64,000 nt of DNA from an uncultured Oscillospiraceae bacterium (GCA_958477305.1 CAUEFI010000004.1:114770-178769), one strand, 5' to 3'; shown: positions 728 through 16,255, counted from the first letter of the stretch. Notes: generated by a model from the letters alone, not told the origin. Translations and numbers: made by a program.

Positions 728-2918
728 AACGTATGAGTTAATGCTGAAAATCGGCGGCAAGGTGGACGGTTCCCTGAAAACCGCCTGCAGCACCGCAGAC
801 AAGAACCTGGCTGCGCTGGGGAAAACGGCAAAGACCGCGGGAAAGATCGCTGCCGGTGCCATGGTAGCAGCCGCCACCGCTGTGGCGACCCTGGGAACCG
901 CTGCGGTGAAATCCGCGGCGGAGTATGAGGCCCAGCTGGCCAACGTTTCCACGCTGCTGACCGGCACGGAGGCAGAGGTGGCCGCACGAACGGCGGAAAT
1001 CGGGGATCAGGTTCTGGAAATCTCCAACCGCACGGGCGTGGCCACGGCTGACCTGACGGACGGAATGTATCAGGTGGTTTCTGCTTTCGGTGACAGCGCA
1101 GACGCCGCGGCCATTCTGGAAACCGCGGCAAAATCCGCGGCGGCGGGAAACGCGACCACGACGGACAGTATCAACCTACTTTCTGCCGTAACCAAGGGTT
1201 ACGGCGATACCTCCGCGGAGGCGGTGCAGCAGGCGGCGGATCTGGCATTTGCCACCGTAAGACTGGGCCAGACCTCTTTCCCGGAACTGGCCGCAGGCAT
1301 GGGCAAGGTCATTCCCCTGGCCAGTACCCTGGGGCTGGAGCAAGAACAGCTATGGGGCGCCATGGCCACGCTGACCGGCGTTACAGGTTCCACGGCGGAA
1401 GTGGTTACGCAGATGAAAGCCACAATGCAGGCGTTCCTCTCCCCGTCCAAGAATATGCAGGCCGCCCTTAAAAACATGGGCTATGAAAGCGGCCAGGCGC
1501 TGCTTGAAAGCAAGGGCCTGCAGGGATCTCTGGACGCCCTAAAGGACGCTGTGGGAGGCAACGAACTGGCGTTTGCTGGCCTGTTCTCCTCTGTGGAGGC
1601 ACAAACCGCGGTGCTGGCTATGGCAGGCAACCAGGCCGAAAACCTGACCAGCAAGACGGCGGAAATGTACGAAGCCACCGGCGCGGCAAATACCGCCTTT
1701 GAGCGGCAGACCAACAACCTGAAATACGACATTCAGATGGTTAAAAACCTGGGCGCCAATTTCTTGACGCAGCTGGGCACCAACATTCTGCCGTATGTGC
1801 GGGAGTTCGCGGAGGCGGCCCTGCCGGTGGTTTCGGAGGCGCTGGAGAAGATCGGCAGCTACATGACCGGAACCATCATTCCGGCGGCGGAAACCGCGGT
1901 GAAATGGATTTCGGAACACCGTACCCTGATCCTGGCGCTGGCGGCGGGTATTGCCACCGCTGTGGCGGCCTACAAGGCGTATAAAGTGGCGATCACCGCC
2001 TACAACGCAGTTATGGCCGTGTATAAAGTGGTCACCGCAGCAAGCGCCACGGGCACCTTTACCCTGGCGGGCGCCATGACGGCGCTAAATCTTCCCGTGC
2101 TGGCAGTTGTGGCCGCCATCGGCCTGGCTGTGGCGGCGGGGATCCTGATTTATAAGAACTGGGACAAGATCAAGGCCAAGGCCGCGGAACTGGGCGCGAA
2201 GATCTCCGAGGTATGGGGAAACATCAAGACTGGCGTTTCCGAGGCCGTGGCGAACCTGGTTTCTGCGTTCCAGTCTAATTTCCCCCTGCTGTCCGCTTAT
2301 TTGAGCGGGTGGTGGGAAAGTGTTTCGGCGGCCTGGGAAAACGTCAAGGCCATTTTTGCCAATATCATTGACTTTGTGCAGAACGTATTTGCAGGCAACT
2401 GGAGCGCCGCCTGGGACAATATCGTGGCCATTTTCGGAAACGTGTTTGGCATGATCGTGAACCTGGCGAAAGCCCCCATAAACGGGGTTATTTCCGCAAT
2501 CAACTGGGTGCTGGAGAAGATCAACAGCATTTCCGTGACGATCCCGGACTGGGTTCCGGGCGTCGGCGGGAAAACCCTGGGCTTTAACATTCCGACGATC
2601 CCCGCCCTGGCTGCCGGTGGTATTGCCACGGCGCCCACGCTGGCGCAGATCGGTGAGGGCGGAGAGCCGGAGGCGGTGCTGCCGCTGTCCAAGCTGGCGG
2701 CCCTCCTGGACGAATGGACGAAGCCGAAGCCGACACCGGGCGGCGGAACGGGCGGCGGCGGTGAAACCGTCGTTTTCTCCCCGGTATTCAATTTCTACGG
2801 CGGGACGCCGAGCCGCGAGGAGGCCGAGGAGGCCGGGCGGATCAGTTTCGCGGAGTTCAAGAAACTGTATAGGCAGATGAAAGCCGAGGAGAAGCGCAAG
2901 CAATTCAGCCCGGCATAA
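711..2918 (+). CDS. phage tail tape measure protein
   Basis: 735 aa, Ala/Gly-rich and helical, with an internal hydrophobic segment. A strong RBS (GGAGGAGGTGG) precedes it, and it follows the chaperone frameshift pair in the usual position. Confidence 0.85.
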   Translation: MAGKNKTYELMLKIGGKVDGSLKTACSTADKNLAALGKTAKTAGKIAAGAMVAAATAVATLGTAAVKSAAEYEAQLANVSTLLTGTEAEVAARTAEIGDQVLEISNRTGVATADLTDGMYQVVSAFGDSADAAAILETAAKSAAAGNATTTDSINLLSAVTKGYGDTSAEAVQQAADLAFATVRLGQTSFPELAAGMGKVIPLASTLGLEQEQLWGAMATLTGVTGSTAEVVTQMKATMQAFLSPSKNMQAALKNMGYESGQALLESKGLQGSLDALKDAVGGNELAFAGLFSSVEAQTAVLAMAGNQAENLTSKTAEMYEATGAANTAFERQTNNLKYDIQMVKNLGANFLTQLGTNILPYVREFAEAALPVVSEALEKIGSYMTGTIIPAAETAVKWISEHRTLILALAAGIATAVAAYKAYKVAITAYNAVMAVYKVVTAASATGTFTLAGAMTALNLPVLAVVAAIGLAVAAGILIYKNWDKIKAKAAELGAKISEVWGNIKTGVSEAVANLVSAFQSNFPLLSAYLSGWWESVSAAWENVKAIFANIIDFVQNVFAGNWSAAWDNIVAIFGNVFGMIVNLAKAPINGVISAINWVLEKINSISVTIPDWVPGVGGKTLGFNIPTIPALAAGGIATAPTLAQIGEGGEPEAVLPLSKLAALLDEWTKPKPTPGGGTGGGGETVVFSPVFNFYGGTPSREEAEEAGRISFAEFKKLYRQMKAEEKRKQFSPA

Positions 2919-2933
2919 GAGGAGGACCACACC

Positions 2934-3146
2934 ATGGAAAGCACCTACACCACCAAGCAGGGGGACGTATGGGACAAAATCGCCTATGAGGTGTACGGCG
3001 ACGAAGAATACACCGGCTGGCTGATGGAAAACAATTTCCCGCTGCTGGACACGTTCGTGTTTGACGCCGGGGTGGTCCTCCAGACCCCGGCCCCGCCGGA
3101 GCAGACCGCGGCCAATGACCTGCCGATCTGGAGGAGCAAGGTATGA
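2934..3146 (+). CDS. small LysM-like phage tail protein (XkdP / gpX-like)
   Basis: A 70-aa protein directly after the tape measure. The GDVWDKIAYEVYGDEEYTGWLMENN segment is LysM-like, and the position matches PBSX XkdP and P2 gpX. Confidence 0.45.
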   Translation: MESTYTTKQGDVWDKIAYEVYGDEEYTGWLMENNFPLLDTFVFDAGVVLQTPAPPEQTAANDLPIWRSKV

Positions 3147-4141
3147 ATACACGGCGGGCGTATGTAGACCTGTTTTACAACGGAACCGCAGCCACGGCGG
3201 AAATTTCCGGTTTCGTGACGGATATTTCATACACGGATCCGGCAAGCGGAGAGGCGGACAGCCTGGACATTACGCTGCAAGACCGGGATCACCGGTGGAC
3301 GGGGGCGTGGATCCCCGTCGCCGGTGACACCCTGGCCGCGACAATCCGGGCGCTGAACTGCCAGTATTCCGGGGACAACCGGATCCTGCCGTGCGGTTTC
3401 TTTATCGTGGACAGTTTCAGTTTTTCCGGCTGGCCGGTTTCCGGGAGCATTTCCGCGATCTCCACGCCGCTGGACAGCAGTTTCACCACCACCCAGCGGA
3501 CAAAGACCTGGGAAAACGTGACCATAAAAGAGATCGGAACCGAGATCGCAGGCCGCGCCGGGATCGCGCTGGCCTGGGACGTGGAGGGCGACCCGTTCAC
3601 GATCAAGAGCGTGGAACAATCGGAACAAACCGACTGTGAATTTTACATGAACCTGTGCAACACCTACGGGCTGGCCATGAAAGTCTACGCCCAAAAGATC
3701 GTGGTGTATGACCGGGAGGCATACAAGAAAAAGGGCGCGGCGGCGGTGCTGTCCCCGTCCAATATGAAATCCTGGTCATGGCAGCAGGATCAGGCAGGCA
3801 CCTACACCGGCGGAGAGTTCACATACACCAGCCCGGCCACGGAAAAGGAAATCAAGGTGACCGTGGGCAAGGGCAGCCGGATCCTAAAGCAGAGCGGCAA
3901 GGCCGACAGCAAGGCCGACGCGGAACGGAAGATCAAGGCGGCGGTGGCCAAGGCAAACCACGGCAAGACAAAACTTTCCGCCACCATTGTGGGAAATGCC
4001 TCTCTGGTGGCCTCTCAATGCGTCCAGGTGGTGGGCCTGGGGAAGCTGTCCGGCAAGTATTACATTGACACCATTACCCACAACGTCAGCGGATCCGGCG
4101 GCTACACCATGGACCTGGAAATGTCGCTGGTGGAGGAATGA
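3143..4141 (+). CDS. phage tail hub protein (XkdQ / late-control-D-like)
   Basis: A 332-aa protein following the LysM gene in conserved PBSX-like order, overlapping the neighbouring genes by a few nt. Confidence 0.5.
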   Translation: MNTRRAYVDLFYNGTAATAEISGFVTDISYTDPASGEADSLDITLQDRDHRWTGAWIPVAGDTLAATIRALNCQYSGDNRILPCGFFIVDSFSFSGWPVSGSISAISTPLDSSFTTTQRTKTWENVTIKEIGTEIAGRAGIALAWDVEGDPFTIKSVEQSEQTDCEFYMNLCNTYGLAMKVYAQKIVVYDREAYKKKGAAAVLSPSNMKSWSWQQDQAGTYTGGEFTYTSPATEKEIKVTVGKGSRILKQSGKADSKADAERKIKAAVAKANHGKTKLSATIVGNASLVASQCVQVVGLGKLSGKYYIDTITHNVSGSGGYTMDLEMSLVEE

Positions 4142-4156
4142 CGCGAGGAGGAACGC

Positions 4157-4600
4157 ATGGAAAACAATATCCGGCTGGGTAAGATTTCAGCCATTGATTA
4201 CGCCGCGGGCACGGTCCGCGTGGTGTACCACGAAAAGGACGACGCCGTGACCGCCCCCATTCCCCTGATTTCATCGGAGTATTTCATGCCGGAGGTGGAC
4301 GACATGGTTATGGTGCTTCACCTTTCCAACGGCACGGAGGCGGGCGTGGTCCTGGGCCGACCGTGGAGTGAGAAGAACAAGCCCCCGGAGGGTTCCAAAG
4401 GGCTTTACCGCAAAGACCTGGCCCGTTCGCCGGGTGAGGCCATGATCCGCTATAAGGACGGCACCATGACCATCAAGGCCGCCAAGTTGGTGATTGACGG
4501 AACCGTGACCGTCAGCGGCGACGTGACCGCCGGCGGGGTTTCCCTGGACAACCACACCCACACGGACAGCATGGGCGGCGGAACCTCCGGGCCATCGTAA
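4157..4600 (+). CDS. baseplate spike / assembly protein (gpV-like or XkdR-like)
   Basis: 147 aa with a C-terminal Gly-rich LDNHTHTDSMGGGTSGP tail typical of gpV-family spike proteins. An RBS (GAGGAGGAA) precedes it. Confidence 0.45.
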   Translation: MENNIRLGKISAIDYAAGTVRVVYHEKDDAVTAPIPLISSEYFMPEVDDMVMVLHLSNGTEAGVVLGRPWSEKNKPPEGSKGLYRKDLARSPGEAMIRYKDGTMTIKAAKLVIDGTVTVSGDVTAGGVSLDNHTHTDSMGGGTSGPS

Positions 4601-4615
4601 GGAGGCGATTTACAC

Positions 4616-5008
4616 ATGATCGGAACGCTGGGGCGCAAAATCATTTTTGAGGTGAGCGACAACAGGGTTTTGACCTTTGAGAGCATGAGCCGCGAGGTTT
4701 CCGGGCGCTGGACCGAACACGAAGTTTTAGGCGTGAAGCCGAAAGCGGAGTTTTTAGGGCCTGGCCTCCAGACCATAAGCCTGACCATTCACCTGTCCGC
4801 TGCCCTGGGCGTGAAGCCGCGGCGGATCCTGGATATGGTGGAGCGCATGGTGGAAAGAGGCACGGCGGAGTACCTGGTGATCGGCGGCAGACTGGTGGGC
4901 CGCCGTCCGTTCCGCGTCACGGGATCGAGTGAAGCCTGGGACAAGGTTTACAGCCGCGGAGAACTGGCCAAGGCTACCCTGACCATTTCGCTGGAGGAAT
5001 ACGCATGA
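4616..5008 (+). CDS. phage baseplate-associated protein of unknown function
   Basis: A 130-aa ORF placed between the spike and the gp25-like gene. Confidence 0.35.
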   Translation: MIGTLGRKIIFEVSDNRVLTFESMSREVSGRWTEHEVLGVKPKAEFLGPGLQTISLTIHLSAALGVKPRRILDMVERMVERGTAEYLVIGGRLVGRRPFRVTGSSEAWDKVYSRGELAKATLTISLEEYA

Positions 5009-5310
5009 ACGAAAACGACCTTTTCAATTTCCAACTGGAATATACGTTCACGGCGGACTGGCTGGCAGAACTGGATCGGCAGCTGGCCCTCCTGCTGTCC
5101 ACACGGGAGGGCACCATGCCGTTGGATCGGGCTTTCGGCCTGAACATGGATTTTGTGGATATGCCGCCAGAGGCCGCAAAGAGCCTTTACACAGCGGAGG
5201 TCACCGAAAAGGTGTCCAAATTCATACCGGAGGTGCGGGTGCAGGAAGTGACCTGGACCGGCGGCAACACCGGAAAACTTTTTCCCAAGGTGGTGATAAC
5301 AAGTGCCTGA
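5005..5310 (+). CDS. baseplate wedge protein, GPW/gp25 lysozyme-like family
   Basis: 101 aa. The PLDRAFGLNMDFVDMP motif matches gp25/GPW family conservation, and its start overlaps the previous stop (ATGA). Confidence 0.55.
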   Translation: MNENDLFNFQLEYTFTADWLAELDRQLALLLSTREGTMPLDRAFGLNMDFVDMPPEAAKSLYTAEVTEKVSKFIPEVRVQEVTWTGGNTGKLFPKVVITSA

Positions 5311-6457
5311 TATTTCCGCAATTCAGAACACCCCGGACGTGTCTTTCATCGACAACAAGACCATTGACGACGTGCGCGGGGATATGGTGGCAGACTTTGA
5401 GGCGTTCATGCTCCAAGCGACGGGCAGCAAGGTGTCCCTGGGCCGCGCCTCTGTCCACCGCATGATCCTGTATTCGGCGGCGGCGCAGATTTACCAAGCC
5501 ATGCAGTACGTTGACCGAGCGGGCAAGCAAAGCCTTTTGAAATACTCCTATTCGGAGTTCCTGGACAATCTGGCGCTGCTGAAAGGCGTTACCAGAGAAC
5601 CGGCCAAGGCGGCCACGACCACGATCCGCTTTACCGCGTCGGCCACCAGGACGCTGGCCACACCGATCCCGGCGGGCACCAGGGTTTCCTCCAGCGGTTC
5701 CATTTATTTCAGCACGATGGAGTACGCAGAGATCCCGGCGGGCAGCCTGACGGTGGACGTGCTGGCGGAGTGTACCGCAACAGGCAACGCGGGCAACGGA
5801 CTGGCGCCTGGCGAGGTGTCCACCATCGTGGATCCCGTTCCCTACATTACCAGCGCCGTGAACCAGAACACCACGGAGGGCGGCGCAGACGTGGAGAACG
5901 ACGAAAGCCTGGCGGAGCGGGTTTACCTGGCCCCTGGCGCCTATTCTACGGCAGGCCCGGAGGACGGATACCTGTACCACGCCAAGAAGTACAACGCCGC
6001 CATTGGTGACGTGGTGGCCACCAGCGACCACGAAGCGGGCCAGGTGGATATTGTTTTCATCATGGCCGACGGTTCCAAGCCGGGCGCGGCCATGATCTCC
6101 GGCCTGCAGGCGTACCTCTCCGGCAAGACGATCCGCCCCATGACGGACAAGCTGACCGTGAAAGCCCCGGAGGAGGTCACATACAGCATTAACCTGACGT
6201 ATTACATCAACCGCAGCGACAGCGCCAGAGCGGTGGCAATCCAGGCGGCGGTGGCCCAGGCCGTGGAGGAATATAAAACCTGGCAGCGCACCATAGGCCG
6301 CGACGTGAACCCGTCGCAACTGGCCGCCATGGTCATGGAGGCAGGCGCCAAGCGTGTCACCGTGACCGCGCCGACGTTCGCGGCGGTGGCCGCCACCAAG
6401 GTGGCAGCATTGACCGGATCGGCCACCGTGACGTATGGAGGGCTGGAAGATGATTAA
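5303..6457 (+). CDS. baseplate J-like protein
   Basis: 384 aa, lying between the gp25-like and tail-protein-I-like genes. Confidence 0.65.
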   Translation: MPDISAIQNTPDVSFIDNKTIDDVRGDMVADFEAFMLQATGSKVSLGRASVHRMILYSAAAQIYQAMQYVDRAGKQSLLKYSYSEFLDNLALLKGVTREPAKAATTTIRFTASATRTLATPIPAGTRVSSSGSIYFSTMEYAEIPAGSLTVDVLAECTATGNAGNGLAPGEVSTIVDPVPYITSAVNQNTTEGGADVENDESLAERVYLAPGAYSTAGPEDGYLYHAKKYNAAIGDVVATSDHEAGQVDIVFIMADGSKPGAAMISGLQAYLSGKTIRPMTDKLTVKAPEEVTYSINLTYYINRSDSARAVAIQAAVAQAVEEYKTWQRTIGRDVNPSQLAAMVMEAGAKRVTVTAPTFAAVAATKVAALTGSATVTYGGLEDD

Positions 6458-7019
6458 ACTTTCCGGCAGCCGCTTCACGGACATTATGCCGGAGAACCTG
6501 GCAGAGCAGCCGGAGATCCAGGCGCTTGCCTACGCCGTGGGCAGGCAGGTGGAGAAGCTGCTGGCCTATGCCGACGGCGCCCGCACCTATGCGGCGATCT
6601 ATGCTGTGCCGGAAAAGGTGCTGGATCTGCTGGCCGTGGAACTGCGTACCCCGTCCTATGACGAAAACTTTTCTATTAAGGTCAAGCGAACCCTGATCGC
6701 GGAAAGCCTGCTGTTTTACGCACAGATGGGCACCCCGGCAGCGGTGAACCGGATCATTGAAACCATTTTCCAGGCCGGTCATATCAGCGAGTGGTGGGAA
6801 TACGGCGGGAAACCCTATCACTTTAAGGCATACACCACGAACCCGGCCATTACGTCGGACGACGTGGAGGAGTTCAAGCGGGTGCTGGGCACCGTCAAGC
6901 GCCTTTCCGCCTGGCTGGACGAAATCGTGTTGGACCTGTCCACACCTCCGGCGGAGGTATTCGTGGGCCATTGGATCCACACGGGCGACTTTATCACCCT
7001 GCAAAGGGCGACTATGTAA
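6435..7019 (+). CDS. phage tail protein I-like (XkdU / DUF2313-like)
   Basis: 194 aa, immediately upstream of the tail fibre gene. Confidence 0.5.
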   Translation: MEGWKMIKLSGSRFTDIMPENLAEQPEIQALAYAVGRQVEKLLAYADGARTYAAIYAVPEKVLDLLAVELRTPSYDENFSIKVKRTLIAESLLFYAQMGTPAAVNRIIETIFQAGHISEWWEYGGKPYHFKAYTTNPAITSDDVEEFKRVLGTVKRLSAWLDEIVLDLSTPPAEVFVGHWIHTGDFITLQRATM

Positions 7020-7035
7020 CAGGAGGTTATCAGCC

Positions 7036-9744
7036 ATGTTTCAGGCCCCGAAACTGACAGACGCCGGCAAAAACCTGTATTACAGGAATATGGCCGGTGA
7101 GGGGATCAAATTCACAACCATTCAGCTGGGCAACGGCACAATCAGCGGTCCGATCTCCGCTATGACGGCCCTTGTCAGCGCCGTGGTGACCATTGACGCC
7201 GAGGTGAAAAACAACGCGGAGCAGTACGCCGACGTGTCCGGCCATTTCTCCAACGCAGAACTGGAGGAGGGTTTTTACTGGCGCGAGATCGGCGTGTTTG
7301 CGGCGGATCCCGATTACCCCAATGACCGCAGCCACGACATTCTTTACTGCTACCAAAACGCCTATGACACGGCGGACTTTATCCCCGTGGCGTCGGTGGA
7401 AACGGTGGAAAAAAACATTACCGTGCCCATTATCGTGGGCGACGCCTCCACGGTGTCCTGCACCCTGTCCAGTTCGCAGGTGCTGGTGTCGGAGGCGGAC
7501 CTGGAGGCGCACGACAAGGACGCGAACGCCCATAATGCCCTGTTTGAGAAGATCAACAAAGAACTGGAAAAGAAACAGGACACGATCACCGCCAAGGGCA
7601 TTTTGAAAGGCGACCAAGACGCAAAGGGAAACCCCACCGTGACCAAGGCCACGCCGGGCGTGGACTACCAGCAGCCCACCCAAGTGCTGACGGAAAGCAA
7701 CGCCATGGCCCTGACGGACACGGTTCCGTTTTTCTCCGGTGCTGACGGGCAAAATCGTAAGGTCACGCTGAAAAAGCTAAAGGAGGCCCTGGGCGTCCAG
7801 TCTGCCAGTATCAACGTGACGACCTGCGCCGGTGCGGCGGTGGTTTGCACGGACGGAGAAACCACCCTGAACGGCGTGGGTTCCACCAAGTTCTCCCTGC
7901 CGGAGAACACCGGCACCTGGGAGGTAACCGCCACCCTGAACGGCCACACGGCCAGCGCCGTGGTGGAGGTCACCGGCGCCATGCAGTACAACGTGGATCT
8001 GGTGATTACCTCCAGCGTGGCAGTCACCCACGCACCCACGAAAACCACCTACAACGTGGGGGAAACATTCGACCCCACCGGCCTGGTGGTCACCGCCACC
8101 TATGCCGACGGCACCACGGAGGACGTAACGGACGGCTGCACGTTCAGCCCCACCGTTATGGCAGCCAGCACCGCGGCGGTGACGATCAAATACCAGCGGG
8201 CGGGCGTGACGGTCACGACCACCCAGGCGGTCACGGTCCTGGAAATGTCCAGCATTTCCGTGAAAACCGCACCAAACAAAACCGCATATTACATCGGTGA
8301 GAGTTTCGACGCCACCGGAATGGTGATTGAGGCCACCATGTCCAACGGCACCAAAAAGACCGTGACGGGCTGGACGTACACCCCCAGCGGCGCCCTTTCC
8401 AAGACGGACACGGCGGTGACGATCTCCTACACGGAAAACGGCGTCACAAAGACCTGCACCCAGGCAATCACGATCCGCACCCTGTCCAGCATTTCCGTGA
8501 CGACGGCACCCGCAAAAACCGCCTACAAGTACGGGGAAAAGTTCAGCAGCGCCGGAATGGTGATTACCGCCAAATATTCGGACAACGCCACCCGCGTGGT
8601 GAGCGGCTGGACCTATTCGCCCACCGGCGCCCTGGGGCTGGCCAATACAACGATCACGATTACCTACGCAGAGGGCGGCGTGAGTAAGACCTGCACCCAG
8701 GCCATTACCGTGAGCAACTACCTTTCCGGTATCGCGGTGACCCACGCACCCACGAAAACCTCCTATTTCACCGGTGAAACGTTCAACAGCGCGGGAATGG
8801 TGGTCACCGCTACCATGGCAGACGGCAGTAAAAAGACCGTCACCGGCTACACCTGCAGCCCCACCACCATGGCAGCCAACACCACGGCGGTCACCGTCAG
8901 CTATTCCGAGGGCGGCGTGACCAAGACGACCACCACCCCGGTGACGGTCACCAGCATTTCCAACACGCTGGCCTCCAACAGCTGGGCAACGATCCGCGCC
9001 GTGTCCGACGCCGGAAAGGGGTCCAATTACTGGAGCGTGGGTGACGCCAAGGGGATCACGATCAACGGCAAAGTGGGCGCCACGACGATCTCCAACCTGT
9101 CCATTTCCGTGTTTATCCTGGGTTTCAACCACAACGCCAGCCGCGAGGGCAGCAACCGGATCCATTTCCAGATCGGCAAGATCAACGGCACCCTGGTGGG
9201 CCTGGTAGACGGCAATTACGGAAGCAGTACCAGCACCACCGGCGCCTTTACCATGAACACGTCATACACGAACAGCGGCGGGTGGAATAACAGCCACATG
9301 AGAAAGACCGTGCTGGGCAGCAACAGCGCCAGCGCCACCAGCCCCGCGGCCAATACCCTGCTGGCAGCCCTGCCGGCGGACCTCCGGGCGGTTATGAAGC
9401 CGGCCACCAAGTACAGCGACAACACCGGCGGCGGAAGTGACACCGCCAGCTATGTCACCAGCACCACGGATCTGTTGCCGCTGCTTTCGGAGTTTGAATA
9501 CCACGGGGCCAGGTCCTACGCCAACAGCGCGGAGAAGAATTACCAGGCCCAGTATGACTATTACAAGGCTGGAAACAGCAAGGTGCATTATAAGCACAAC
9601 GCCACCGGCACGGCGGCCTTTGTGTGGTGCCGTTCCGTCAATTCGGGCATCAGCAGCACTTTCTGCCTTGTCGGCACCGACGGCAGCGCCAGCCGTAGCG
9701 GCGCCCACTATTCCTGGGCGCTGGCCCCCTGCTTTTTTGTCTAA
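7036..9744 (+). CDS. phage tail fibre protein with four tandem Ig-like repeats; its C-terminal domain carries the DGR variable repeat
   Basis: ATG at 7036 with AGGAGG at 7021-7026; the six-frame ORF continues upstream only because the frame stays open. 903 aa with four ~79-aa repeats and a C-terminus ...FVWCRSVNSGISSTFCLVGTDGSASRSGAHYSWALAPCFFV. Confidence 0.8.
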   Translation: MFQAPKLTDAGKNLYYRNMAGEGIKFTTIQLGNGTISGPISAMTALVSAVVTIDAEVKNNAEQYADVSGHFSNAELEEGFYWREIGVFAADPDYPNDRSHDILYCYQNAYDTADFIPVASVETVEKNITVPIIVGDASTVSCTLSSSQVLVSEADLEAHDKDANAHNALFEKINKELEKKQDTITAKGILKGDQDAKGNPTVTKATPGVDYQQPTQVLTESNAMALTDTVPFFSGADGQNRKVTLKKLKEALGVQSASINVTTCAGAAVVCTDGETTLNGVGSTKFSLPENTGTWEVTATLNGHTASAVVEVTGAMQYNVDLVITSSVAVTHAPTKTTYNVGETFDPTGLVVTATYADGTTEDVTDGCTFSPTVMAASTAAVTIKYQRAGVTVTTTQAVTVLEMSSISVKTAPNKTAYYIGESFDATGMVIEATMSNGTKKTVTGWTYTPSGALSKTDTAVTISYTENGVTKTCTQAITIRTLSSISVTTAPAKTAYKYGEKFSSAGMVITAKYSDNATRVVSGWTYSPTGALGLANTTITITYAEGGVSKTCTQAITVSNYLSGIAVTHAPTKTSYFTGETFNSAGMVVTATMADGSKKTVTGYTCSPTTMAANTTAVTVSYSEGGVTKTTTTPVTVTSISNTLASNSWATIRAVSDAGKGSNYWSVGDAKGITINGKVGATTISNLSISVFILGFNHNASREGSNRIHFQIGKINGTLVGLVDGNYGSSTSTTGAFTMNTSYTNSGGWNNSHMRKTVLGSNSASATSPAANTLLAALPADLRAVMKPATKYSDNTGGGSDTASYVTSTTDLLPLLSEFEYHGARSYANSAEKNYQAQYDYYKAGNSKVHYKHNATGTAAFVWCRSVNSGISSTFCLVGTDGSASRSGAHYSWALAPCFFV
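8011..8961 (+). repeat. four tandem ~237-240-nt coding repeats (bacterial Ig-like domains) inside the tail fibre gene
   Basis: The units start at 8011, 8248, 8485 and 8725. They share the motif xTxAPxKTxYxxGExFxxxGMVxTAxxxDG...VTxxYxExGVTKTxTxxVTV. Confidence 0.7.
9610..9737 (+). repeat. DGR variable repeat (VR) at the 3' end of the tail fibre gene
   Basis: About 127 nt nearly identical to 10348-10474. All 17 differences lie where the downstream copy has A. Confidence 0.85.
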
Positions 9745-9768
9745 TCGCCGCAGCATATCCGGCAAAAT

Positions 9769-9790
9769 CCCGCCCACGGAAGTGGGCGGG
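9769..9790 (+). promoter_or_regulatory. GC hairpin with GGAA tetraloop downstream of VR (candidate DGR target-recognition hairpin/cruciform)
   Basis: cccgcccac GGAA gtgggcggg forms a perfect 9-bp stem, located 32 nt after the VR end. Confidence 0.55.
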
Positions 9791-9828
9791 AAACCCGGAC
9801 AGAGAAAGAAAACCCGTGAGGTGAAAGA

Positions 9829-10287
9829 ATGTCAGTTCTGAAAGAAAAGCGGACCGTGAGCAAAGCGGAGTATGTGAACACCGCAAACCAGATTTATGTG
9901 GAAACGGTGGGATTTTTGACGCGGCTTTCCGCCCGTTATTCCCGGCTGATTGCAGAGGGCACCGCGCAGCTGGCCGGTGAGGTCATGGACCACACCGAAA
10001 AGGCCAACAAAATATACCCGTCGGACGAACAGCGCAAAGCCCAGCGCAAGGCGCATTTGCTGGAGGCGCTGGCCTCCCTCTCTGCGCTGGACGTGCGCCT
10101 GACCCACGCCTATCTGGTTATGTACCAGAACCCGCAAGGGTGCTTTACGGCGCCCAGCGGAAAGACGGTCCCGCCCAAGGAGGCCATGGACAAGCTGGAC
10201 CGCATGGCGCAAAGCCTGGGCGAACTGATAGACAGGGAGGACACCCTGCTGCGGAATATCCTGGAGAGCGACAGGAAGCGGAAATAA
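9829..10287 (+). CDS. avd: DGR accessory variability determinant (Avd-like), helical basic protein
   Basis: A 152-aa helical protein sitting exactly between VR and TR. It has an RBS (GAGGTG) and no other recognisable family. Confidence 0.5.
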   Translation: MSVLKEKRTVSKAEYVNTANQIYVETVGFLTRLSARYSRLIAEGTAQLAGEVMDHTEKANKIYPSDEQRKAQRKAHLLEALASLSALDVRLTHAYLVMYQNPQGCFTAPSGKTVPPKEAMDKLDRMAQSLGELIDREDTLLRNILESDRKRK

Positions 10288-10347
10288 GTCATTTTTATGG
10301 GTGTATCTTTGAAAATGCGCCGGGAGGCAGGGCGGCTTTCCCCTCTG

Positions 10348-10474
10348 ACGGCGGCCAATGTGTGGTGCCGTTCCGTCAATTCGAGCAACAGCAACAATTT
10401 CTGCCTTGTCAACACCGACGGCAGCGCCAACAATAACAACGCCAACAATTCCTGGGCGCTGGCCCCCTGATTTT
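10348..10474 (+). repeat. DGR template repeat (TR), AAC/AAT-codon rich
   Basis: In the fibre frame the template reads ...aat tcg agc aac agc aac aat ttc tgc ctt gtc aac acc gac ggc agc gcc aac aat aac aac gcc aac aat tcc tgg.... Every mismatch to VR falls on a TR adenine. Confidence 0.85.
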
Positions 10475-10688
10475 GCATAACTGGGTCAAATGCAGTAACG
10501 AACGTGAACCGGACCCATGTAAAAGGAAAGATACTTCCCTGGCGAAAGCCTGAAACTGCCCGCTGATGATCCCGCGCGGACGCTGCTTGCATGGCGGGGG
10601 TATTGTGCTAACCCCGTTTCATGCGCTGGATCGAAGCAGTTTAGACGCACACCAACACCACAACTGTACGGAGGGCGAATACTTTTCT

Positions 10689-11813
10689 ATGACAAGCGAA
10701 CAGCGCCGCGAGGCGCGTTACAGACGCCGCCAGACAAGGCGGCAGGCAAAGCGAAAGGCCCGCAGCGACGCCCTGGGGCCGATTGAGGAAGTTTTCAGTT
10801 ACCGCGCCATGTTTTTCTATGGCCGGAAATGCTGCAACGGCGTGAGGTGGAAAGCCAGCACACAGCGGTTTGAAATGCACCTGTTTTCCGGCACCGCCAA
10901 GCGCCGGCGCAAGATCCTGAATGGAACATGGAAGCCAGGCAAAACCGCCCATTTCACCCTGAAAGAACGGGGCAAGGTTCGACCAATAGACGCGCCGCAC
11001 ATTGAGGATCGGCAGGTTTATAAGGTTCTGACCAAAAAGGTACTGGTGCCGCTGTATGTGCCCAGTATGATCTACGACAACAAAGCCAGCCAGAAAGGCG
11101 GCGGCCTGCATTTCCATTACAGACGCCTGGCCAAGCACCTGCGGGACCATTACCGCAAGCATGGCCTGGAGGGTGCCCTGTTCCTGATGGATTTTCACCA
11201 CTTTTTCCCGGACGCGCCCCACGCGCTGCTGTATGAGCGGCACCGGGGCATAATCCTAAACCCGGACCTGCGGCAGTTGGCCGATCTGGTGGTGGCAGCT
11301 GTGCAGGGCGGCGTGGGTATGCCGCTGGGCGTGGAGCCAAGCCAGCAGGAAATGGTGGCGCTGCCGTCCTCCCTGGACAACCGGATCAAAGCCCAGCTTT
11401 CGATCCATGGCGCTGCCCATTACATGGACGACTATTACACCATTCTGCCGTCGAAGCGGGCGGCGGAGGTGACCGCGGCGGACGTGATCGGCCACGCGGA
11501 GGCCATGGGCCTGCAGGTCAACGCCGGAAAGTCAAAAGTGGTTCCGTTCTCCAGACCGTTCCGGTTCTGCAAAGCAAAGTTTCAGGTGACGGAAACCGGC
11601 GCCGTGAAGATCCACGGCTGCCGGGACGGAATGAAGCGGGCACGGCGGAAACTGCGGCTTTTCCAGGCGCGTGTGGCCAGCGGTGAAATGACGGTGGAGC
11701 AGGTGGCCCAATGGCTGCAAACACCGATTTCCTACTATGAGAACTTCAACGATCACGGCAGGGTGCTGAAACTGCGGCGGCTATTTTATGCGATTTTCAA
11801 AACGGAGGTGTAA
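10689..11813 (+). CDS. DGR reverse transcriptase
   Basis: It has a YMDD box (HYMDDYYT) and an upstream SQ motif (NKASQKGG), and lies immediately downstream of TR. ATG 10689 has a GGAGGG RBS. The six-frame ORF's 5' extension from 10566 is probably untranslated. Confidence 0.85.
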   Translation: MTSEQRREARYRRRQTRRQAKRKARSDALGPIEEVFSYRAMFFYGRKCCNGVRWKASTQRFEMHLFSGTAKRRRKILNGTWKPGKTAHFTLKERGKVRPIDAPHIEDRQVYKVLTKKVLVPLYVPSMIYDNKASQKGGGLHFHYRRLAKHLRDHYRKHGLEGALFLMDFHHFFPDAPHALLYERHRGIILNPDLRQLADLVVAAVQGGVGMPLGVEPSQQEMVALPSSLDNRIKAQLSIHGAAHYMDDYYTILPSKRAAEVTAADVIGHAEAMGLQVNAGKSKVVPFSRPFRFCKAKFQVTETGAVKIHGCRDGMKRARRKLRLFQARVASGEMTVEQVAQWLQTPISYYENFNDHGRVLKLRRLFYAIFKTEV

Positions 11814-11816
11814 ACC

Positions 11817-12428
11817 ATGTTCAAGATCACAAAAGACGGGGCGACCGTGGCCATGACCGAGGCCCCCAACTACATCAAGCAGGCGGAAAACGGCTGTTTC
11901 GTGCTGTGCCCGGAGGCGGAGGCCACGGGGATCGCATACAACGGCACCGTTTACCACCTCCTGGGACGCCCTGACATGGCGGGGGCAGAAATCACGGTCA
12001 TGCTGGAAGAAACGGACGCGGGAGTGGAGATCGCCAAGGCGGCAGACGCTACGGGGATCGTGTTCGTCACAATGGCGGAGGCCGGAAGCGTGGACGCCAC
12101 AACGGCGGCGGAACACGCGGACCTTTTCGCGCCGTGGGCGGTGCCGGTAGCCTATACCGTGGGCCAGATCCGCAGATATACGGACGGGAAGCTGTATAAA
12201 TGCGTTCAGGCCCATACGTCACAAGCGGACTGGACGCCGGACAAAACCGCAAGCCTTTGGACGCCGGTTTCCGATCCGGCGGAGGAATGGCCGGAATGGT
12301 CCCAGCCGGTCGGCGCACATGACGCATACAGCAAGGACGCCAAGGTGTCGCACAATGGCAAGCATTGGACCAGCACCGTGGACAGCAACGTGTGGGAGCC
12401 TGGCGTGTACGGGTGGACGGAGGTGTAA
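11817..12428 (+). CDS. phage protein with two C-terminal CBM5/12 carbohydrate-binding modules
   Basis: AYTVGQIRRYTDGKLYKCVQAHTSQADWTPDKTASLWTP matches the chitin-binding-domain type 3 consensus (AYxxGQxVxYNGKxYKCxQxHTSxxGWxP...ALW). A second, weaker copy follows. Confidence 0.6.
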   Translation: MFKITKDGATVAMTEAPNYIKQAENGCFVLCPEAEATGIAYNGTVYHLLGRPDMAGAEITVMLEETDAGVEIAKAADATGIVFVTMAEAGSVDATTAAEHADLFAPWAVPVAYTVGQIRRYTDGKLYKCVQAHTSQADWTPDKTASLWTPVSDPAEEWPEWSQPVGAHDAYSKDAKVSHNGKHWTSTVDSNVWEPGVYGWTEV

Positions 12429-12431
12429 GCC

Positions 12432-12833
12432 GTGGGCGCTGCCTACATCGTAAGAAAAAGAGCGCGGTTTGTGAGTATCAACGGCCCCGTAAACCTCCCG
12501 TATGGTACGCCTGTGGACGCTGTGGACGGGTTCCTGGTACATAAAGGCCGCCCACTATGCGCGGTCACCAGCGAAAGCGCACACCGCTATTTTGCACGAA
12601 ATGACGACGGAAACGGGAAAGCCCGCGGCGCCCTGATCGGCGCTATCACGGCCAAGCTGGAGCGGAAAGACGCCGGCCATCAAATGCGCTGGGATCTCCT
12701 GTGGAGCGACCCGGAGGCGCAGAAATTACGCCACCCGGATCATGCGGATTATTGGCTGTGGGGACACGCCTTTTTTGAGGCGGACATGGCAGACCTGGAA
12801 CACGTCGCCGGGCTGATCGGTGCGAGGAGGTGA
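12432..12833 (+). CDS. hypothetical phage protein (GTG start)
   Basis: A 133-aa ORF packed tightly against its neighbours. Confidence 0.35.
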   Translation: MGAAYIVRKRARFVSINGPVNLPYGTPVDAVDGFLVHKGRPLCAVTSESAHRYFARNDDGNGKARGALIGAITAKLERKDAGHQMRWDLLWSDPEAQKLRHPDHADYWLWGHAFFEADMADLEHVAGLIGARR

Positions 12834-12840
12834 CGCTGCC

Positions 12841-13020
12841 ATGGATTATATGAAGCTGGTGGCGGACCTCTGCCAGATCATTGACCGCCAGAACGAAATC
12901 ACCAAGGCCATGGTGGTGCAGCTGGGACAGCGCGACGCCCTCCGGTATGAGGAGGAAATGGCGGCAGTTCGGCGGGACTACGATACCGCCATGGGGGAGG
13001 TGGATCCGTGCAAAAACTAA
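12841..13020 (+). CDS. hypothetical small phage protein
   Basis: 59 aa. ATG 12841 follows a GAGGAGGTGA RBS. Confidence 0.35.
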   Translation: MDYMKLVADLCQIIDRQNEITKAMVVQLGQRDALRYEEEMAAVRRDYDTAMGEVDPCKN

Positions 13021-13460
13021 TTGAAACACTGTCCACCGTGAGCGTAGGCCAGGCGCTGACTGGCGGCGTCACCGTGGTGGCGCTGGTGTCCGTGTTTATC
13101 GAAATTACCCCGGTGAAGATCAACCCGGTTTCCAAGTTTCTGGCCTGGCTGGGGCGGAAGATCAACAGCGAAGTGATCGCCAAGGTGGACAGGCTGGAAA
13201 CCGAGATGCAGGCCATGAGGAAAGCGGACGGAGAGCAGGAGGCCATAAACTGCCGTTACCGGATCCTACGGTTCGGGGACGAAGTAAAACACGGCACCCG
13301 GCACAGTCAGGAACATTTTGAGCAGATCCTGGCCGATATTGACGCCTACGAAATCTATTGCAAGGATCACAAGGATTTCAAGAACAACAAAACCAAAGTG
13401 ACCACGGAGCGGATCCTGGACGTTTACCGCAAGTGCGTGGAAACGGACGATTTTTTGTAA
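13008..13460 (+). CDS. membrane-anchored phage protein (possible lysis accessory), N-terminal TM
   Basis: GTG start after GGGGGAGGTGG, a single N-terminal TM segment (GGVTVVALVSVFIEI) and a soluble helical remainder. Confidence 0.4.
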   Translation: MQKLIETLSTVSVGQALTGGVTVVALVSVFIEITPVKINPVSKFLAWLGRKINSEVIAKVDRLETEMQAMRKADGEQEAINCRYRILRFGDEVKHGTRHSQEHFEQILADIDAYEIYCKDHKDFKNNKTKVTTERILDVYRKCVETDDFL

Positions 13461-13472
13461 TGGGAGGAAGCC

Positions 13473-13886
13473 GTGAAAATCTTTATTGTGGCCGCGGCGG
13501 CGTGGGCTGCCGGTGCCCTCCTGGGCTATTTCGTGGCCCGGCTGGCGTATAAGCACCTGCGGAAGCGTCTGCGGACGCTGCGGCAGGAACGGAAGCCGCC
13601 TAAAAAGAAAATGGGCACCATGGACAGGATCCTGGTTCTGGAAGCGGTTTTCCTGGTGGCGTACACGGTGGCCGATCTGGTGGTTTTCTGGCACACCGGA
13701 TCCGAGCCTGCCACGCTGACCGGCTGCGTGTTCGGCGTGTGCGGCCTGGAAAACGGCGTCATGGGCTGGATCAAGACCAACAAGGACAAGGCGGCGGAGG
13801 CCGCCGGAACGAGCGGGAGCGGCACCCAGCCGCCCCCGGAGGAACCGCCCGCGGGCACCGGCGAACCACCGGACGCGGGCCTGTGA
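13473..13886 (+). CDS. putative holin (3 TM segments, Pro/Glu-rich C-tail)
   Basis: GTG start after GGGAGGAAG and three hydrophobic helices, placed directly upstream of the endolysin. Confidence 0.4.
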   Translation: MKIFIVAAAAWAAGALLGYFVARLAYKHLRKRLRTLRQERKPPKKKMGTMDRILVLEAVFLVAYTVADLVVFWHTGSEPATLTGCVFGVCGLENGVMGWIKTNKDKAAEAAGTSGSGTQPPPEEPPAGTGEPPDAGL

Positions 13887-13902
13887 GGAGGTATAAACAA
13901 AC

Positions 13903-14775
13903 ATGACTGGAAACGAACTGCGCCGAAAGGTGGCGGACATTATCAACGCATGGGACGGAGCAACCAGAGGCAGCGCCAAGCACCTGGAGATCCTGAACAT
14001 CTACAACAACCACAAGCCGCTGGCAAGAGGTTACCGCGTACAGGTGGGTGACGCCCATTGTGCCACCACGACCTCCGCGGCGTACATCAAGGCAGGGATC
14101 GCGGAGTACACCGGGACGGAGTGCGGCGTGGGAAAGTACGTCGAGATCGCCAAGAAAAAAGGGATCTGGACGGAGAACGACGCATACACCCCCAAGGTGG
14201 GCGACGCCTGCGTGTACGACTGGCAGGACGGGGCCAACTACGCCACCACCGACAACACCGGCGCACCGGATCACATTGGCATTGTCACCAAGGTGGGCGG
14301 CGGCACCTTTGTGGTCACAGAGGGAAACATGAACGGCGGCAAGGTGGGCAAGCGCACCATGAAAGTGAACGGGCGGTATATCCGCGGTTTCATTACCCCG
14401 GACTTTGACATGATCGCCCGGAAACTGGGCGGTACGTCCGGCGGGACGGCGGACAAGCCAACGAAACCGACGACCCAGGCGGCGGGTACATACACCGTAA
14501 AGAGCGGCGACACCCTTTCCCGTATCGCCGCGAAGTACGGCACCACCGTGGCCAAACTGGTAGAGATCAACGGCATTAAAAACCCGAACCTGATCCGTGT
14601 GGGCCAGGTCCTCCGCCTGCCCGGCGGAGCCGTCAAGTACACCGTTGTGGCCGGGGACACCCTTTCCCGTATCGCCGCGAAGTACGGCACCACCGTGGCC
14701 AAGCTGGCAGCAGACAACGGGATCAAAAATCCGAACCTGATCCATGTGGGCCAGGTTATCACCATCAACAAATAA
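13903..14775 (+). CDS. endolysin: N-terminal CHAP peptidase domain with two C-terminal LysM repeats
   Basis: CHAP Cys/His motifs ([13 protein letters not shown] ... [10 protein letters not shown]) are followed by two near-identical LysM units ([23 protein letters not shown]...). A strong RBS (GAGGAGG) precedes it. Confidence 0.85.
14491..14769 (+). repeat. tandem duplicated LysM-coding units within endolysin (14491-14622 and 14638-14769)
   Basis: The two copies share a 47-nt identical core (gacaccctttcccgtatcgccgcgaagtacggcaccaccgtggccaa). Confidence 0.7.
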
Positions 14776-14794
14776 TTTTGCCGGAGGTGCTGGA

Positions 14795-14965
14795 ATGGTT
14801 ATTATCAAGGCGCTGGCCTGGGCGCTTTCCCTGGCCGCTGTGGTCACCTGGCTGGTGGCCCTGGTACGCTGGGACGGTTCGATCCCCTGTGATCGGAGCC
14901 AATGCGAAAGCTGCCCATTTCCGCGGTGCCACGAAAATGGCCAGGACAGCACCGGGCAGGAATGA
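14795..14965 (+). CDS. small single-TM membrane protein (Cys-rich C-terminus)
   Basis: ATG 14795 after GGAGGTG encodes MVIIKALAWALSLAAVVTWLVALVRW.... Confidence 0.3.
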   Translation: MVIIKALAWALSLAAVVTWLVALVRWDGSIPCDRSQCESCPFPRCHENGQDSTGQE

Positions 14966-14974
14966 GAGGTAAAA

Positions 14975-15385
14975 ATGGAACAGACTATTATCCGCCTGGC
15001 CATTGGCCTGGTTCTTTTGGTGGCTGTCAACGTCGTGCTGGGCAGCCTGAACGCCCTTTTTGACGGGACTTTCGACCGTATCAAATGCCGGAACGGCGTC
15101 ATTAAGGGGATCATTATTGCCGCCTGTTTCGTCGCTTTCTATGTAGCGGGACGCCTGAACCCCGATATTGTGGCAATCGACATTGACGGCGAAACGGTCA
15201 ACGTGGCAACAGCCGCCAACCTGGCCATGGTGACGGCCTATGTGCTGTATGCGAAAGACGTTTTTTCCAAGCTGTCCAAGCTGGTTTTGAGCAAAACGAG
15301 CGGGACGCCGGAGCAGACCGGCGGAACCACGCCGCCCGCATTGGAGGAACCGGCGGACGCGGCGGAGGCCACCGCAGCAGAATAA
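14975..15385 (+). CDS. putative phage holin family membrane protein
   Basis: 136 aa with 2-3 TM segments and an acidic C-tail, preceded by an RBS (GAGAGGTAAAA). Confidence 0.45.
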   Translation: MEQTIIRLAIGLVLLVAVNVVLGSLNALFDGTFDRIKCRNGVIKGIIIAACFVAFYVAGRLNPDIVAIDIDGETVNVATAANLAMVTAYVLYAKDVFSKLSKLVLSKTSGTPEQTGGTTPPALEEPADAAEATAAE

Positions 15386-15388
15386 AAA

Positions 15389-15422
15389 AGGAACCCCGGC
15401 GCCGCCCTGGCGTCGGGGTTCT
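15389..15422. terminator. GC hairpin terminator after the lysis cassette
   Basis: aaccccggcgccgccctggcgtcggggtt forms a hairpin, followed by cttctg. Confidence 0.4.
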
Positions 15423-15430
15423 TCTGCGGG

Positions 15431-15577
15431 TCACATACTGGCAGGCATGGCCCGCATGACTGTTTTTCTGCTGTATTCATCGGTGAGGATCAACACCATA
15501 CCGCGCCGCCCATCGGCCAGCGGGACCGTGACCACCTCCAGCGTAACAGCCGGGGCCGCTTTTTCCATTTTCCCCAT
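15431..15577 (-). CDS. small ORF (48 aa) of unknown function, second gene of a two-ORF minus-strand unit
   Basis: GGGAGGAAATGAGA precedes an ATG encoding MGKMEKAAPAVTLEVVTVPLADGRRGMVLILTDEYSRKTVMRAMPASM. It is too short for the ORF track. Confidence 0.25.
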   Translation of the reverse strand: MGKMEKAAPAVTLEVVTVPLADGRRGMVLILTDEYSRKTVMRAMPASM

Positions 15578-15579
15578 TC

Positions 15580-15678
15580 TCATTTCCTCCCATTGAAAAG
15601 TTTACGAAGCAGCCGGATCCCGTAGCGAACCGGAATATAAACCGCCACGAATATGGCCACAAAAAGCAGGTATTTCAT
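15580..15678 (-). CDS. short hydrophobic peptide (32 aa, single TM)
   Basis: An AGGAGGG RBS lies 6 nt before an ATG encoding MKYLLFVAIFVAVYIPVRYGIRLLRKLFNGRK. Its stop sits two nt before the next start. Confidence 0.25.
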   Translation of the reverse strand: MKYLLFVAIFVAVYIPVRYGIRLLRKLFNGRK

Positions 15679-15681
15679 GCG

Positions 15682-15716
15682 CTGCCCTCCTATTGACATT
15701 TTAGTGGGTTTCGTTT
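15682..15716 (+). promoter_or_regulatory. near-consensus sigma-A-type promoter (TTGACA-N17-TATATT), followed by a 12-bp GC hairpin (15721-15752)
   Basis: ttgaca ttttagtgggtttcgtt tatatt reads as a promoter. It points toward the 3' end of the convergent small ORF at 15756-15891, with no plus-strand protein gene for ~330 nt. Confidence 0.35.
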
Positions 15717-15755
15717 ATATTGAGGGTGCGGGGGTTACCCCCCGCCCCTCTGTCT

Positions 15756-15891
15756 GTTACCAGTTCAGCAATTTGAGGATTGCCGCTGTAATCAGACCGG
15801 AGATTGTGCCCGCCAGGATTGTGTCCGCCAAGACCTGCAACCTGTTGGGCTGCGCCGTCGGCTTATGCCGTCGGCGTTTTTTCTTGCTCAT
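15756..15891 (-). CDS. tail-anchored small membrane peptide (44 aa; basic N-terminus, C-terminal TM)
   Basis: An AGGAAAGGGG RBS precedes an ATG encoding MSKKKRRRHKPTAQPNRLQVLADTILAGTISGLITAAILKLLNW. Confidence 0.3.
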
Positions 15892-15936
15892 TTTAACCAC
15901 CCCTTTCCTCTTGAACTGTCTATATTATAGTCTTTT

Positions 15937-16023
15937 TAGGGTGCATAATCAAGTGGCGATATGCACGAAAAAAGGTGCTGTAATTTGTCTAAAATATGCA
16001 CTTTACAGGGTGCATATAAAATG
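15937..16023 (+). promoter_or_regulatory. promoter of the XRE gene (-35 TTTACA, extended -10 TGaTACAAT) overlapping two operator-like palindromes GTGCATA...TATGCAC
   Basis: The palindromes are gggtGCATAatcaagtggcgaTATGCac and aTATGCActttacagggtGCATAt. Confidence 0.4.
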
Positions 16024-16054
16024 ATACAATGAAGCACAGAAAGGGGTGGATATT

Positions 16055-16255
16055 ATGGCAATCAGCTACCAGGGGGCATTTGACAAAATGCAGGAAAAGG
16101 GCGTCACGACATACCGGATCCGAAAGGAAAATATACTGTCACAAAGTACCCTGCAAAAAATGAGGGACGGGAAATATGTAACGACGGAAACAATAGAACG
16201 GCTTTGCCTGCTGCTGGATTGCACCCCAAACGATTTAATGAAAATCACGAAGTAA
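16055..16255 (+). CDS. XRE-family (Cro/CI-type) HTH transcriptional regulator
   Basis: A 66-aa HTH protein (...TYRIRKENILSQSTLQKMRDGKYVTTETIERLCLLLDCTPNDLM). ATG 16055 follows a GGGGTGG RBS. Confidence 0.75.
   Translation: MAISYQGAFDKMQEKGVTTYRIRKENILSQSTLQKMRDGKYVTTETIERLCLLLDCTPNDLMKITK

Follow-up and report, generated by a model that had tools for sequence, protein, structure and literature searches.

Evidence for a complete diversity-generating retroelement with an RT-2 RNA among the tail genes of a P2-like prophage from a gut bacterium of the Oscillospiraceae

Introduction

In the prototype diversity-generating retroelement (DGR), that of Bordetella phage BPP-1, whose components are ordered mtd-avd-TR-brt, sequence is transferred in an adenine-specific manner from a template repeat (TR) to a variable repeat (VR), with which the gene of a receptor-binding protein ends on its 3' side. 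The structure of the BPP-1 RNA, solved by cryo-electron microscopy, contains a TR:spacer helix of 7 canonical pairs ending at the priming adenosine, 2 unpaired nucleotides and an 11-bp avd:spacer helix, the last of which stops cDNA synthesis (bioRxiv 10.1101/2023.10.23.563531). DGRs have also been found in 10 of 18 Faecalibacterium phages (PMC5883640), and variation of the VR, which is placed at the C-terminus of DUF6273, has been documented at read level for phages Roos and Pioen (PMC11792537). Here we describe an element of this kind at positions 7036-11813 of a 64,000-nt stretch of DNA (the window) from an uncultured Oscillospiraceae bacterium (GCA_958477305.1, CAUEFI010000004.1:114770-178769). 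We regard it, with a probability of about 0.93, as a complete DGR located among the tail genes of a prophage that is P2-like, with a contractile tail, and whose host is a gut bacterium of the Oscillospiraceae.

The cassettes of Faecalibacterium phages FP_Taranis (NC_047914), Roos and Pioen are homologous to the one analyzed here, with the C-terminal target domain and its VR, an accessory gene, the TR, the structured RNA RT-2 and the gene for a reverse transcriptase (RT) following one another in the same order. In the case of Taranis, identity amounts to 72% for the accessory protein (compared with gp70) and 56% for the RT, and the C-terminal domain of the target is 65% identical to the C-terminal 270 amino acids (aa) of gp68 (annotated as "DGR target", DUF6273). 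RT-2 (175 bits), mismatches confined to adenines, a hairpin with a GGAA loop and a myovirus-type tail are also present there, although nucleotide identity reaches only ~67%, over only half of the cassette. The Taranis target is a separate 546-aa protein encoded two genes downstream of the annotated fibre, whereas in the present locus a single 902-aa protein, encoded directly after gpI, joins the diversified domain to a fibre N-terminus and four Big_3 repeats. Moreover, an Arc-like repressor gene separates the target and accessory genes of Taranis, and the host of that group is Faecalibacterium, whereas the sources naming the present accessory protein label it Oscillospiraceae. Two further records carry the same system, which is annotated in neither: the unannotated uncultured human-gut phage MT835543.1 (43 kb), 98.7% identical over window positions 1-17810 and containing the same DGR, and Dulem virus 34 (PP511788), whose cassette is 76% identical and has the same architecture. 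Their VRs differ from the present one at TR-adenine positions.

With BPP-1 the locus shares adenine-specific TR-to-VR transfer, a VR located 3' in a gene whose product binds receptors (here presumably), the order of the genes, a VR that ends in a GC-rich block, a hairpin with a GRNA loop, an accessory protein that is basic and has four helices (here as predicted by modelling) and an RNA layout in which a 2-nt linker stands between a 7-bp TR:spacer helix and an 11-bp upstream:spacer helix. The two systems differ in several respects. The similarity of the RTs is weak (31 bits), and none to Avd is detectable in the sequence of the accessory protein; the spacer RNA of BPP-1 is RT-10 (PMC5737381), whereas here it is RT-2; the 5' arm of the longer helix lies inside avd in BPP-1, but just past the stop codon of the accessory gene in this locus; and the diversified domain is Mtd in BPP-1, in contrast to the DUF6273-like domain of a contractile-tail phage described below.

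Results

The repeat pair and its adenine-specific differences

A repeat search of positions 6900-12100 returned one direct repeat pair of 127 nt, composed of the VR (9610-9736, + strand) and the TR (10348-10474, + strand), which are offset by 738 nt and 87% identical (repeat family D3). The ungapped comparison of the two copies contains 17 mismatches, and at each of them (17/17) the TR has adenine. Within a 122-nt core, 16 of the 30 TR adenines are substituted and differences at non-A positions number zero (hypergeometric P = 3.5e-12 for 16/16 core mismatches on A). A preliminary description of this region, made from the sequence alone, had given the same start for the upstream copy, the same downstream copy and the same 17 adenine-confined mismatches, all of which were recovered upon realignment; only its VR end, placed at 9737, has to be moved to 9736. 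The A-only pattern recurs in three relatives, and a scan of both strands of the window detected no second VR for this TR.

The VR constitutes, in frame, the last 45 codons of the 902-aa open reading frame (ORF), with the diversified codons at 9619-9711. When read in the fibre frame, the TR contains 12 AAY codons, in agreement with the richness in AAC and AAT remarked upon earlier, and 6 single-A codons. Stop codons are unreachable by A-to-N changes within these codons, and the ceiling of protein variants for the VR (12 AAY plus up to 6 single-A codons) amounts to ~5e17.

The seventeenth mismatch (C9732 in the VR, A10470 in the TR) stands apart, since the same C/A pair is constant in four divergent phages, 8 VR alleles and 11 TR copies, and T at 9732, which would be synonymous, is absent from all VR alleles examined. 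C9732/A10470, the same pair in every relative examined, is probably a fixed VR/TR difference marking the homing boundary, and not a product of mutagenesis.

The reverse transcriptase

The RT gene (10689-11813, + strand; 374 aa) has its start in agreement with those of Taranis and Dulem virus, and the sequence GGAGGG is located 11 nt upstream. A longer ORF beginning at 10566 was rejected, because it overlaps RT-2 and the relatives begin at the equivalent of 10689. A search of this interval with RT-domain hidden Markov models, which had been proposed as a check of the initial reading, matched Pfam RVT_1 (4e-8, 33.6 bits); the protein also matched phrog_1423 (3e-64). The sole match among solved structures was the BPP-1 DGR RT (8ub7_A; E 1.2e-6, 31 bits). 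In the alignment with this protein GVGMPLGVEPSQ stands opposite GVGIPIGSLTSQ, with YMDD on YMDD, LGVEPSQ faces IGSLTSQ (the LGxxxSQ motif), and the DF..FF motif and the first catalytic aspartate block are also aligned. The SQ motif is a feature of DGR RTs, whereas SP is typical of other RT classes. Searches of RT libraries yielded a weak match to a group II intron RT in NCBIfam (44 bits, with a cut-off of 300) and weak generic RT and DRT matches in PADLOC. The YMDD and SQ motifs were correctly recognized in the preliminary description, which had nevertheless placed the RT gene directly after the TR; a structured RNA of 214 nt lies between them.

Variation among related phages

Phages sharing the same flanks, identified by an exact-word scan of viral contigs, supplied 8 VR alleles and 11 TR copies. 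In the alleles, 28 of the 30 variable positions face TR adenines, and the mean pairwise difference is 17.6 for the VR compared with 1.3 for the TR. Comparison of related genomes, which had been put forward as a test able to refute the DGR reading, did not refute it and revealed a VR that varies at TR-adenine positions and a TR that is nearly constant. The same contrast is visible when the cassette is aligned with that of MT835543.1: of 89 differences in 4778 nt, the VR accounts for 16 within its 127 nt and the remaining 4651 nt for 73, so that the VR forms the peak of divergence. The single non-A difference between these two VRs (9653) matches a polymorphism of the TR (10391), which a flow of information from TR to VR would predict. 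The presence of very different VRs in phages that are 98-99% identical elsewhere implies recent activity in the lineage.

Several observations accompany this comparison. A T-to-G change at non-A repeat position 59 (window 9668; CTT Leu to CGT Arg) recurs in L005, L011 and the L004 group, and the other non-A change in the VR alleles is found at repeat position 12; these may be ordinary mutations or rare RT errors at bases other than A. A second group of VR-like sequences, nearly identical to one another, was found in the IMG/VR contigs L004, L009, L010 and L020 (8 kb and 66-69 kb). They retain the VWCRSV...ALAPCF frame and have a different downstream flank (TGTATAAGGAGG); neither TR nor RT-2 was detected in the contig DNA examined, and they may represent targets without a DGR or with a remote TR. 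A scan of genome contigs with 18-mers gave mainly chance matches in unrelated phyla, and a VR/TR pair in L032 and L033 only.

The target gene

The target of diversification is a 902-aa tail fibre (7036-9744, + strand), defined by its ORF, its translation and PHROG matches. It is composed of an N-terminal fibre domain (residues 7-265 match phrog_7037, "tail fiber protein", 3.7e-30), four Ig-like repeats and a C-terminal DUF6273-like domain bearing the VR; residues 584-901 (the last ~320) match phrog_37900 (6e-116). The Ig-like part corresponds to four tandem repeats of 237 nt (8011-8950, + strand; repeat families D1 and D2) that match Pfam Big_3 in four stretches (3.1e-24). The C-terminal domain, of receptor-binding type and with the VR at its end (8941-9741, + strand), is homologous to that of Taranis gp68, and all 26 of the aligned homologues of the target match DUF6273 (best 4.1e-9). 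Homologues of the C-terminal part number in the thousands. The gene is immediately preceded by homologues of gpJ (Baseplate_J, 3.9e-59, 5303-6457) and gpI (Tail_P2_I, 4.7e-20, 6435-7019), and thus occupies the position of gpH in P2. From the baseplate genes to the lysis genes no other fibre gene was found.

DGR targets of gut phages with a DUF6273 domain, including the tentaclins, similarly combine a C-terminal VR in a domain of this type with Ig-like domains; in the tentaclins the DUF6273 domain is N-terminal, whereas here it is C-terminal, on a fibre. A C-type-lectin-like fold has been assigned to DUF6273 domains of other proteins (PMC10743442; bioRxiv 10.1101/2024.10.15.618418), and both the host surface and intestinal cells are considered in the literature as what DUF6273 targets act upon. 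A search of the PDB with a profile of the present domain gave a chance match only. The diversified domain presumably serves in receptor binding.

The accessory protein

Between the two repeats lies a gene (9829-10287, + strand) for a protein of 152 aa with an isoelectric point of 9.2. An Avd-like helical protein had been postulated at this place. The ORF and its helical character hold, the latter by modelling, but searches of Pfam, NCBIfam, PADLOC and the PDB (phmmer and profile search) revealed no sequence similarity to Avd. The AlphaFold2 model, built with 25 homologues, is a four-helix bundle with a predicted local distance difference test score (pLDDT) of 86, and in a comparison with a library of viral structures the matches ranked 2-5 are named "Avd-like", although helical bundles also score high against unrelated proteins. 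For this reason we label the protein as predicted to be Avd-like by fold and position, and not as a proven Avd. Cornuault et al. found no Avd homologue in Taranis (PMC5883640); the model suggests that the "missing Avd" of Taranis-type DGRs may be a diverged Avd and not a different protein.

DNA elements at the end of the VR

The 3' end of the VR (9712-9736, + strand) consists of the G/C-rich block GGGCGCTGGCCCCC, the fixed C9732 (A in the TR) and TTTT, and is invariant across all VR alleles. The arrangement of a G/C-rich block and a C/A marker resembles the initiation of mutagenic homing (IMH) site and its IMH* counterpart in BPP-1, and by analogy this segment may have an IMH-like function. 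A potential DNA hairpin or cruciform (9768-9791), with a 10-bp GC-rich stem and a GGAA loop, is located 31 nt past the VR (folding z = -2.5) and is kept in three relatives, L001, L002 (GAAA loop) and L003 (6 bp, GGAA). Its stem, loop and distance agree with the rule established for DGR target sites, i.e. a stem of 7-10 bp with a 4-nt GRNA loop situated 4-34 bp from the VR (PMC3240598). A terminator scan did not call this hairpin as a terminator.

RT-2 and two long-range helices

The 214-nt space from the TR to the start codon of the RT gene is filled by the structured RNA RT-2 (Rfam RF03077; 10481-10696, + strand; 170 bits, with a gathering score of 40 and all 222 model positions covered), which had previously been overlooked. 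RT-2 is found at the same position in Taranis, in Dulem virus 34 and in three phages that are near-identical (L001, L002, L003, L011 and L015 in all), and thus between TR and RT gene in five DGRs. In the study describing the RT motifs (Weinberg et al. 2017) only RT-10 was tied to a DGR, that of BPP-1, and a role of the other motifs in DGRs was a matter of speculation (PMC5737381). The Rfam scan gave RT-2 only, with neither intron RNA domains nor retron RNA.

Two helices linking RT-2 with sequences outside it were spotted by eye from aligned motifs and evaluated in an alignment of 41 loci with RTs that share 59-99% identity with the present one; 39 of its rows are distinct. RNAduplex runs on the upstream and downstream sequences produced long, loop-ridden structures that were uninformative. 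The 5' arm of an 11-bp helix (GGG-U-GUAUCUUU; 10299-10310, + strand) is located just past the accessory gene stop codon, and its 3' arm (AAAGAUAC-UU-CCC; 10527-10539, + strand) lies within a conserved stretch that is unpaired in the Rfam drawing and which here pairs outside the motif; positions 10299-10301 and 10303-10310 pair with 10527-10534 and 10537-10539. All 429 cells of the alignment (429/429, 100%) are paired, and compensatory changes occur in 7 of the 11 pairs (39 distinct sequences), as exemplified by GUAUCUUU/AAAGAUAC, GUGCAACU/AGUUGCAC and GCAUUUCU/AGAAAUGC; controls in slid registers gave 0-3 compensatory pairs and 42-81% paired cells. A 7-bp helix joins UUUUGCA on the TR side (10471-10477, + strand) with UGUAAAA on the RT-2 side (10518-10524, + strand) and is the predicted counterpart of the template:primer duplex of BPP-1; A10524 would be the priming nucleotide. 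Here 97.8% of cells are paired and 4 of the 7 pairs show compensatory changes, compared with 0-2 compensatory pairs and 44-72% paired cells in the slid-register controls. A register off by one was also tried (47% paired), and the slid control indicated the correct one. The RT-2 strands of both helices are separated by a 2-nt linker (GG, 10525-10526), and AAAGGA (10522-10527) is invariant throughout the alignment.

RT-2 appears, on balance, to represent no more than the 3' half of a DGR RNA scaffold in two parts: with the arm at 10299-10310 it would form a BPP-1-like core of two helices (7 bp, a 2-nt linker and an 11-bp "stop" helix) in a clade with a distant RT and an accessory protein without sequence similarity to Avd. 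If this is true, cDNA synthesis would be primed in cis from A10524 and, by analogy with BPP-1, the first templated base would be A10470 or its neighbour, while synthesis would terminate just 3' of 10310. In BPP-1, re-establishing the pairs of the stop helix by compensatory mutation did not restore activity. In the present locus, the TTTT would remain uncopied, and this, together with integration inside the GC-rich block, would explain the unchanging C9732.

In two of the loci (L075 and L076) the 3' hairpin of RT-2 is interrupted by a GC-rich insertion of ~58 nt that could form a hairpin of its own, which suggests that the last hairpin loop of RT-2 tolerates insertions.

The prophage

The phage-like region begins at the window start and extends to ~17810, the limit of the similarity to MT835543.1. 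Upstream of the target are genes for a tape measure protein, gpD-like, gpV-like, gpU and gpW-like proteins and a gpE-type chaperone; matches to P2-type tail families in the window comprise Baseplate_J, Tail_P2_I and Phage_P2_GpU as well as, weakly, GPW_gp25 and Phage_base_V. A gene for the tube protein FII is present in the phage of 98.7% identity, a short way upstream of the equivalent of the window start. A 486-aa ORF in the sheath position (L022 31954-33411, - strand; beside the FII gene) has no Pfam match at E <= 0.001, and the tail sheath of this phage group may thus be divergent. The P2 baseplate and tail genes agree with the contractile-tail element of PBSX/P2 type that had been proposed. 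The accompanying distinction from a "siphovirus BPP-1 type" has to be dropped, since BPP-1 is a short-tailed phage and not a siphovirus.

Downstream of the RT gene are genes for a CBM_5_12 protein, small ORFs, an endolysin with CHAP and LysM domains and an IS30-family transposase, followed by chromosomal transport genes. The CBM_5_12 protein (1.5e-13; 203 aa; 11817-12428, + strand) is encoded immediately after the RT gene and ahead of the lysis genes, and may be a tail accessory or a lysis-related protein. The IS30-family transposase (HTH_38 and rve; 16668-17768, + strand) is located at the end of the phage region, has a counterpart at the corresponding place in the scaffold of the 98.7%-identical phage, and may be either an insertion sequence carried along by the phage or the enzyme by which the phage itself integrates; within the prophage portion covered by the window, neither a tyrosine nor a serine integrase was seen. 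The cumulative GC skew climbs to ~44 kb of the window and then drops, which may reflect only a change in gene orientation.

Discussion

The preliminary description had interpreted this locus as a complete DGR, and the A-only mismatch pattern, the RT of BPP-1 type, the target in gpH position and the variation of the VR in the lineage all speak for that interpretation. In the mechanism which we propose, a transcript containing the end of the accessory gene, the TR and the RT-2 RNA would fold so that the TR is looped out between the 11-bp and 7-bp helices. The RT and the Avd-like accessory protein would copy the TR into cDNA, misincorporating at adenines, and this cDNA would replace the VR, the putative homing step being guided by the GC-rich VR end and the hairpin with the GGAA loop. 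In the DUF6273-like fibre domain, 12 AAY codons would thereby be rewritten along with as many as 6 single-A codons, which would change the binding of host receptors.

Several points weigh against this interpretation. The target itself scores slightly below the gathering cut-off of DUF6273 (PF19789; 23.5 bits), the full protein reaching 20.1 bits and its C-terminal 264 aa 23.0 bits, and the AlphaFold2 model of residues 639-902, based on an alignment of 26 sequences, is poor (pLDDT 50.7, and <35 over the VR). Two non-A positions are variable among the VR alleles. The evidence of variation concerns the lineage and not reads of this genome, whose own current activity is presumed from sequence comparison. 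Finally, the shuffle control used for covariation ignores kinship among the sequences; the slid-register control supports both helices.

The lineage-level nature of that evidence is also what favours a relic, i.e. a DGR that has all its parts and no longer homes in this genome, with the VR/TR differences recording past activity. DGRs in the Faecalibacterium prophages Lelie, Lagaffe_CP and CP11 indeed gave no signal of VR variation (PMC11792537). We nevertheless consider such a fate quite improbable for the present element, whose RT, accessory and target ORFs are intact, whose catalytic motifs are present and whose RNA helices and hairpin are preserved, and whose relatives have very different VRs in phages 98-99% identical elsewhere. 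It is also conceivable, if rather unlikely, that the DGR is real and the diversified protein is an adhesin for mucus or other gut material, a role that has been suggested for Ig-domain DGR targets like the Hoc-like proteins of Mushu, and not a fibre that recognizes the host receptor. The four Big_3 domains of the target would fit such a function, which the literature on DUF6273 targets also leaves open. On the other hand, the gene directly follows the gpJ and gpI homologues in the position of P2 gpH, the N-terminus of its product resembles tail-fibre PHROGs, and it is the sole fibre gene between the baseplate and lysis genes, all of which argue for a host-receptor fibre.

The remaining alternative, that the locus is no DGR and that an RT of retron, group II intron or defence type stands beside a chance repeat, would be favoured by the weak NCBIfam and PADLOC matches mentioned above. 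A pattern of mismatches restricted to adenines has a chance probability of ~1e-12, the only match of the RT in the PDB is a DGR RT sharing its SQ motif, and the Rfam scan returned RT-2 in place of intron domains or retron RNA. The adenine pattern, the variation of VR and TR and the RT match effectively refute this alternative and leave a DGR as the reading of the locus.

The element itself adds little, because homologous DGRs of Faecalibacterium phages have been published (PMC5883640, PMC11792537). The new points are modest and consist of the link between RT-2 and DGRs, two covarying helices that mirror the RNA core of BPP-1, and the predicted Avd-like fold of a protein previously called "not Avd". 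The lineage to which the element belongs is common: the identical accessory protein sequence occurs in 1000 contigs or more, and 6563 members make up the RT cluster. DGRs acting on the tail fibres of gut prophages are one of the main origins of rapid changes of host range in the human gut virome. If RT-2 is indeed part of a two-part scaffold, a function would be supplied for an orphan Rfam RNA. The covariation itself shows that the RNA core seen in the BPP-1 structure has been kept in a distant clade of DGRs.

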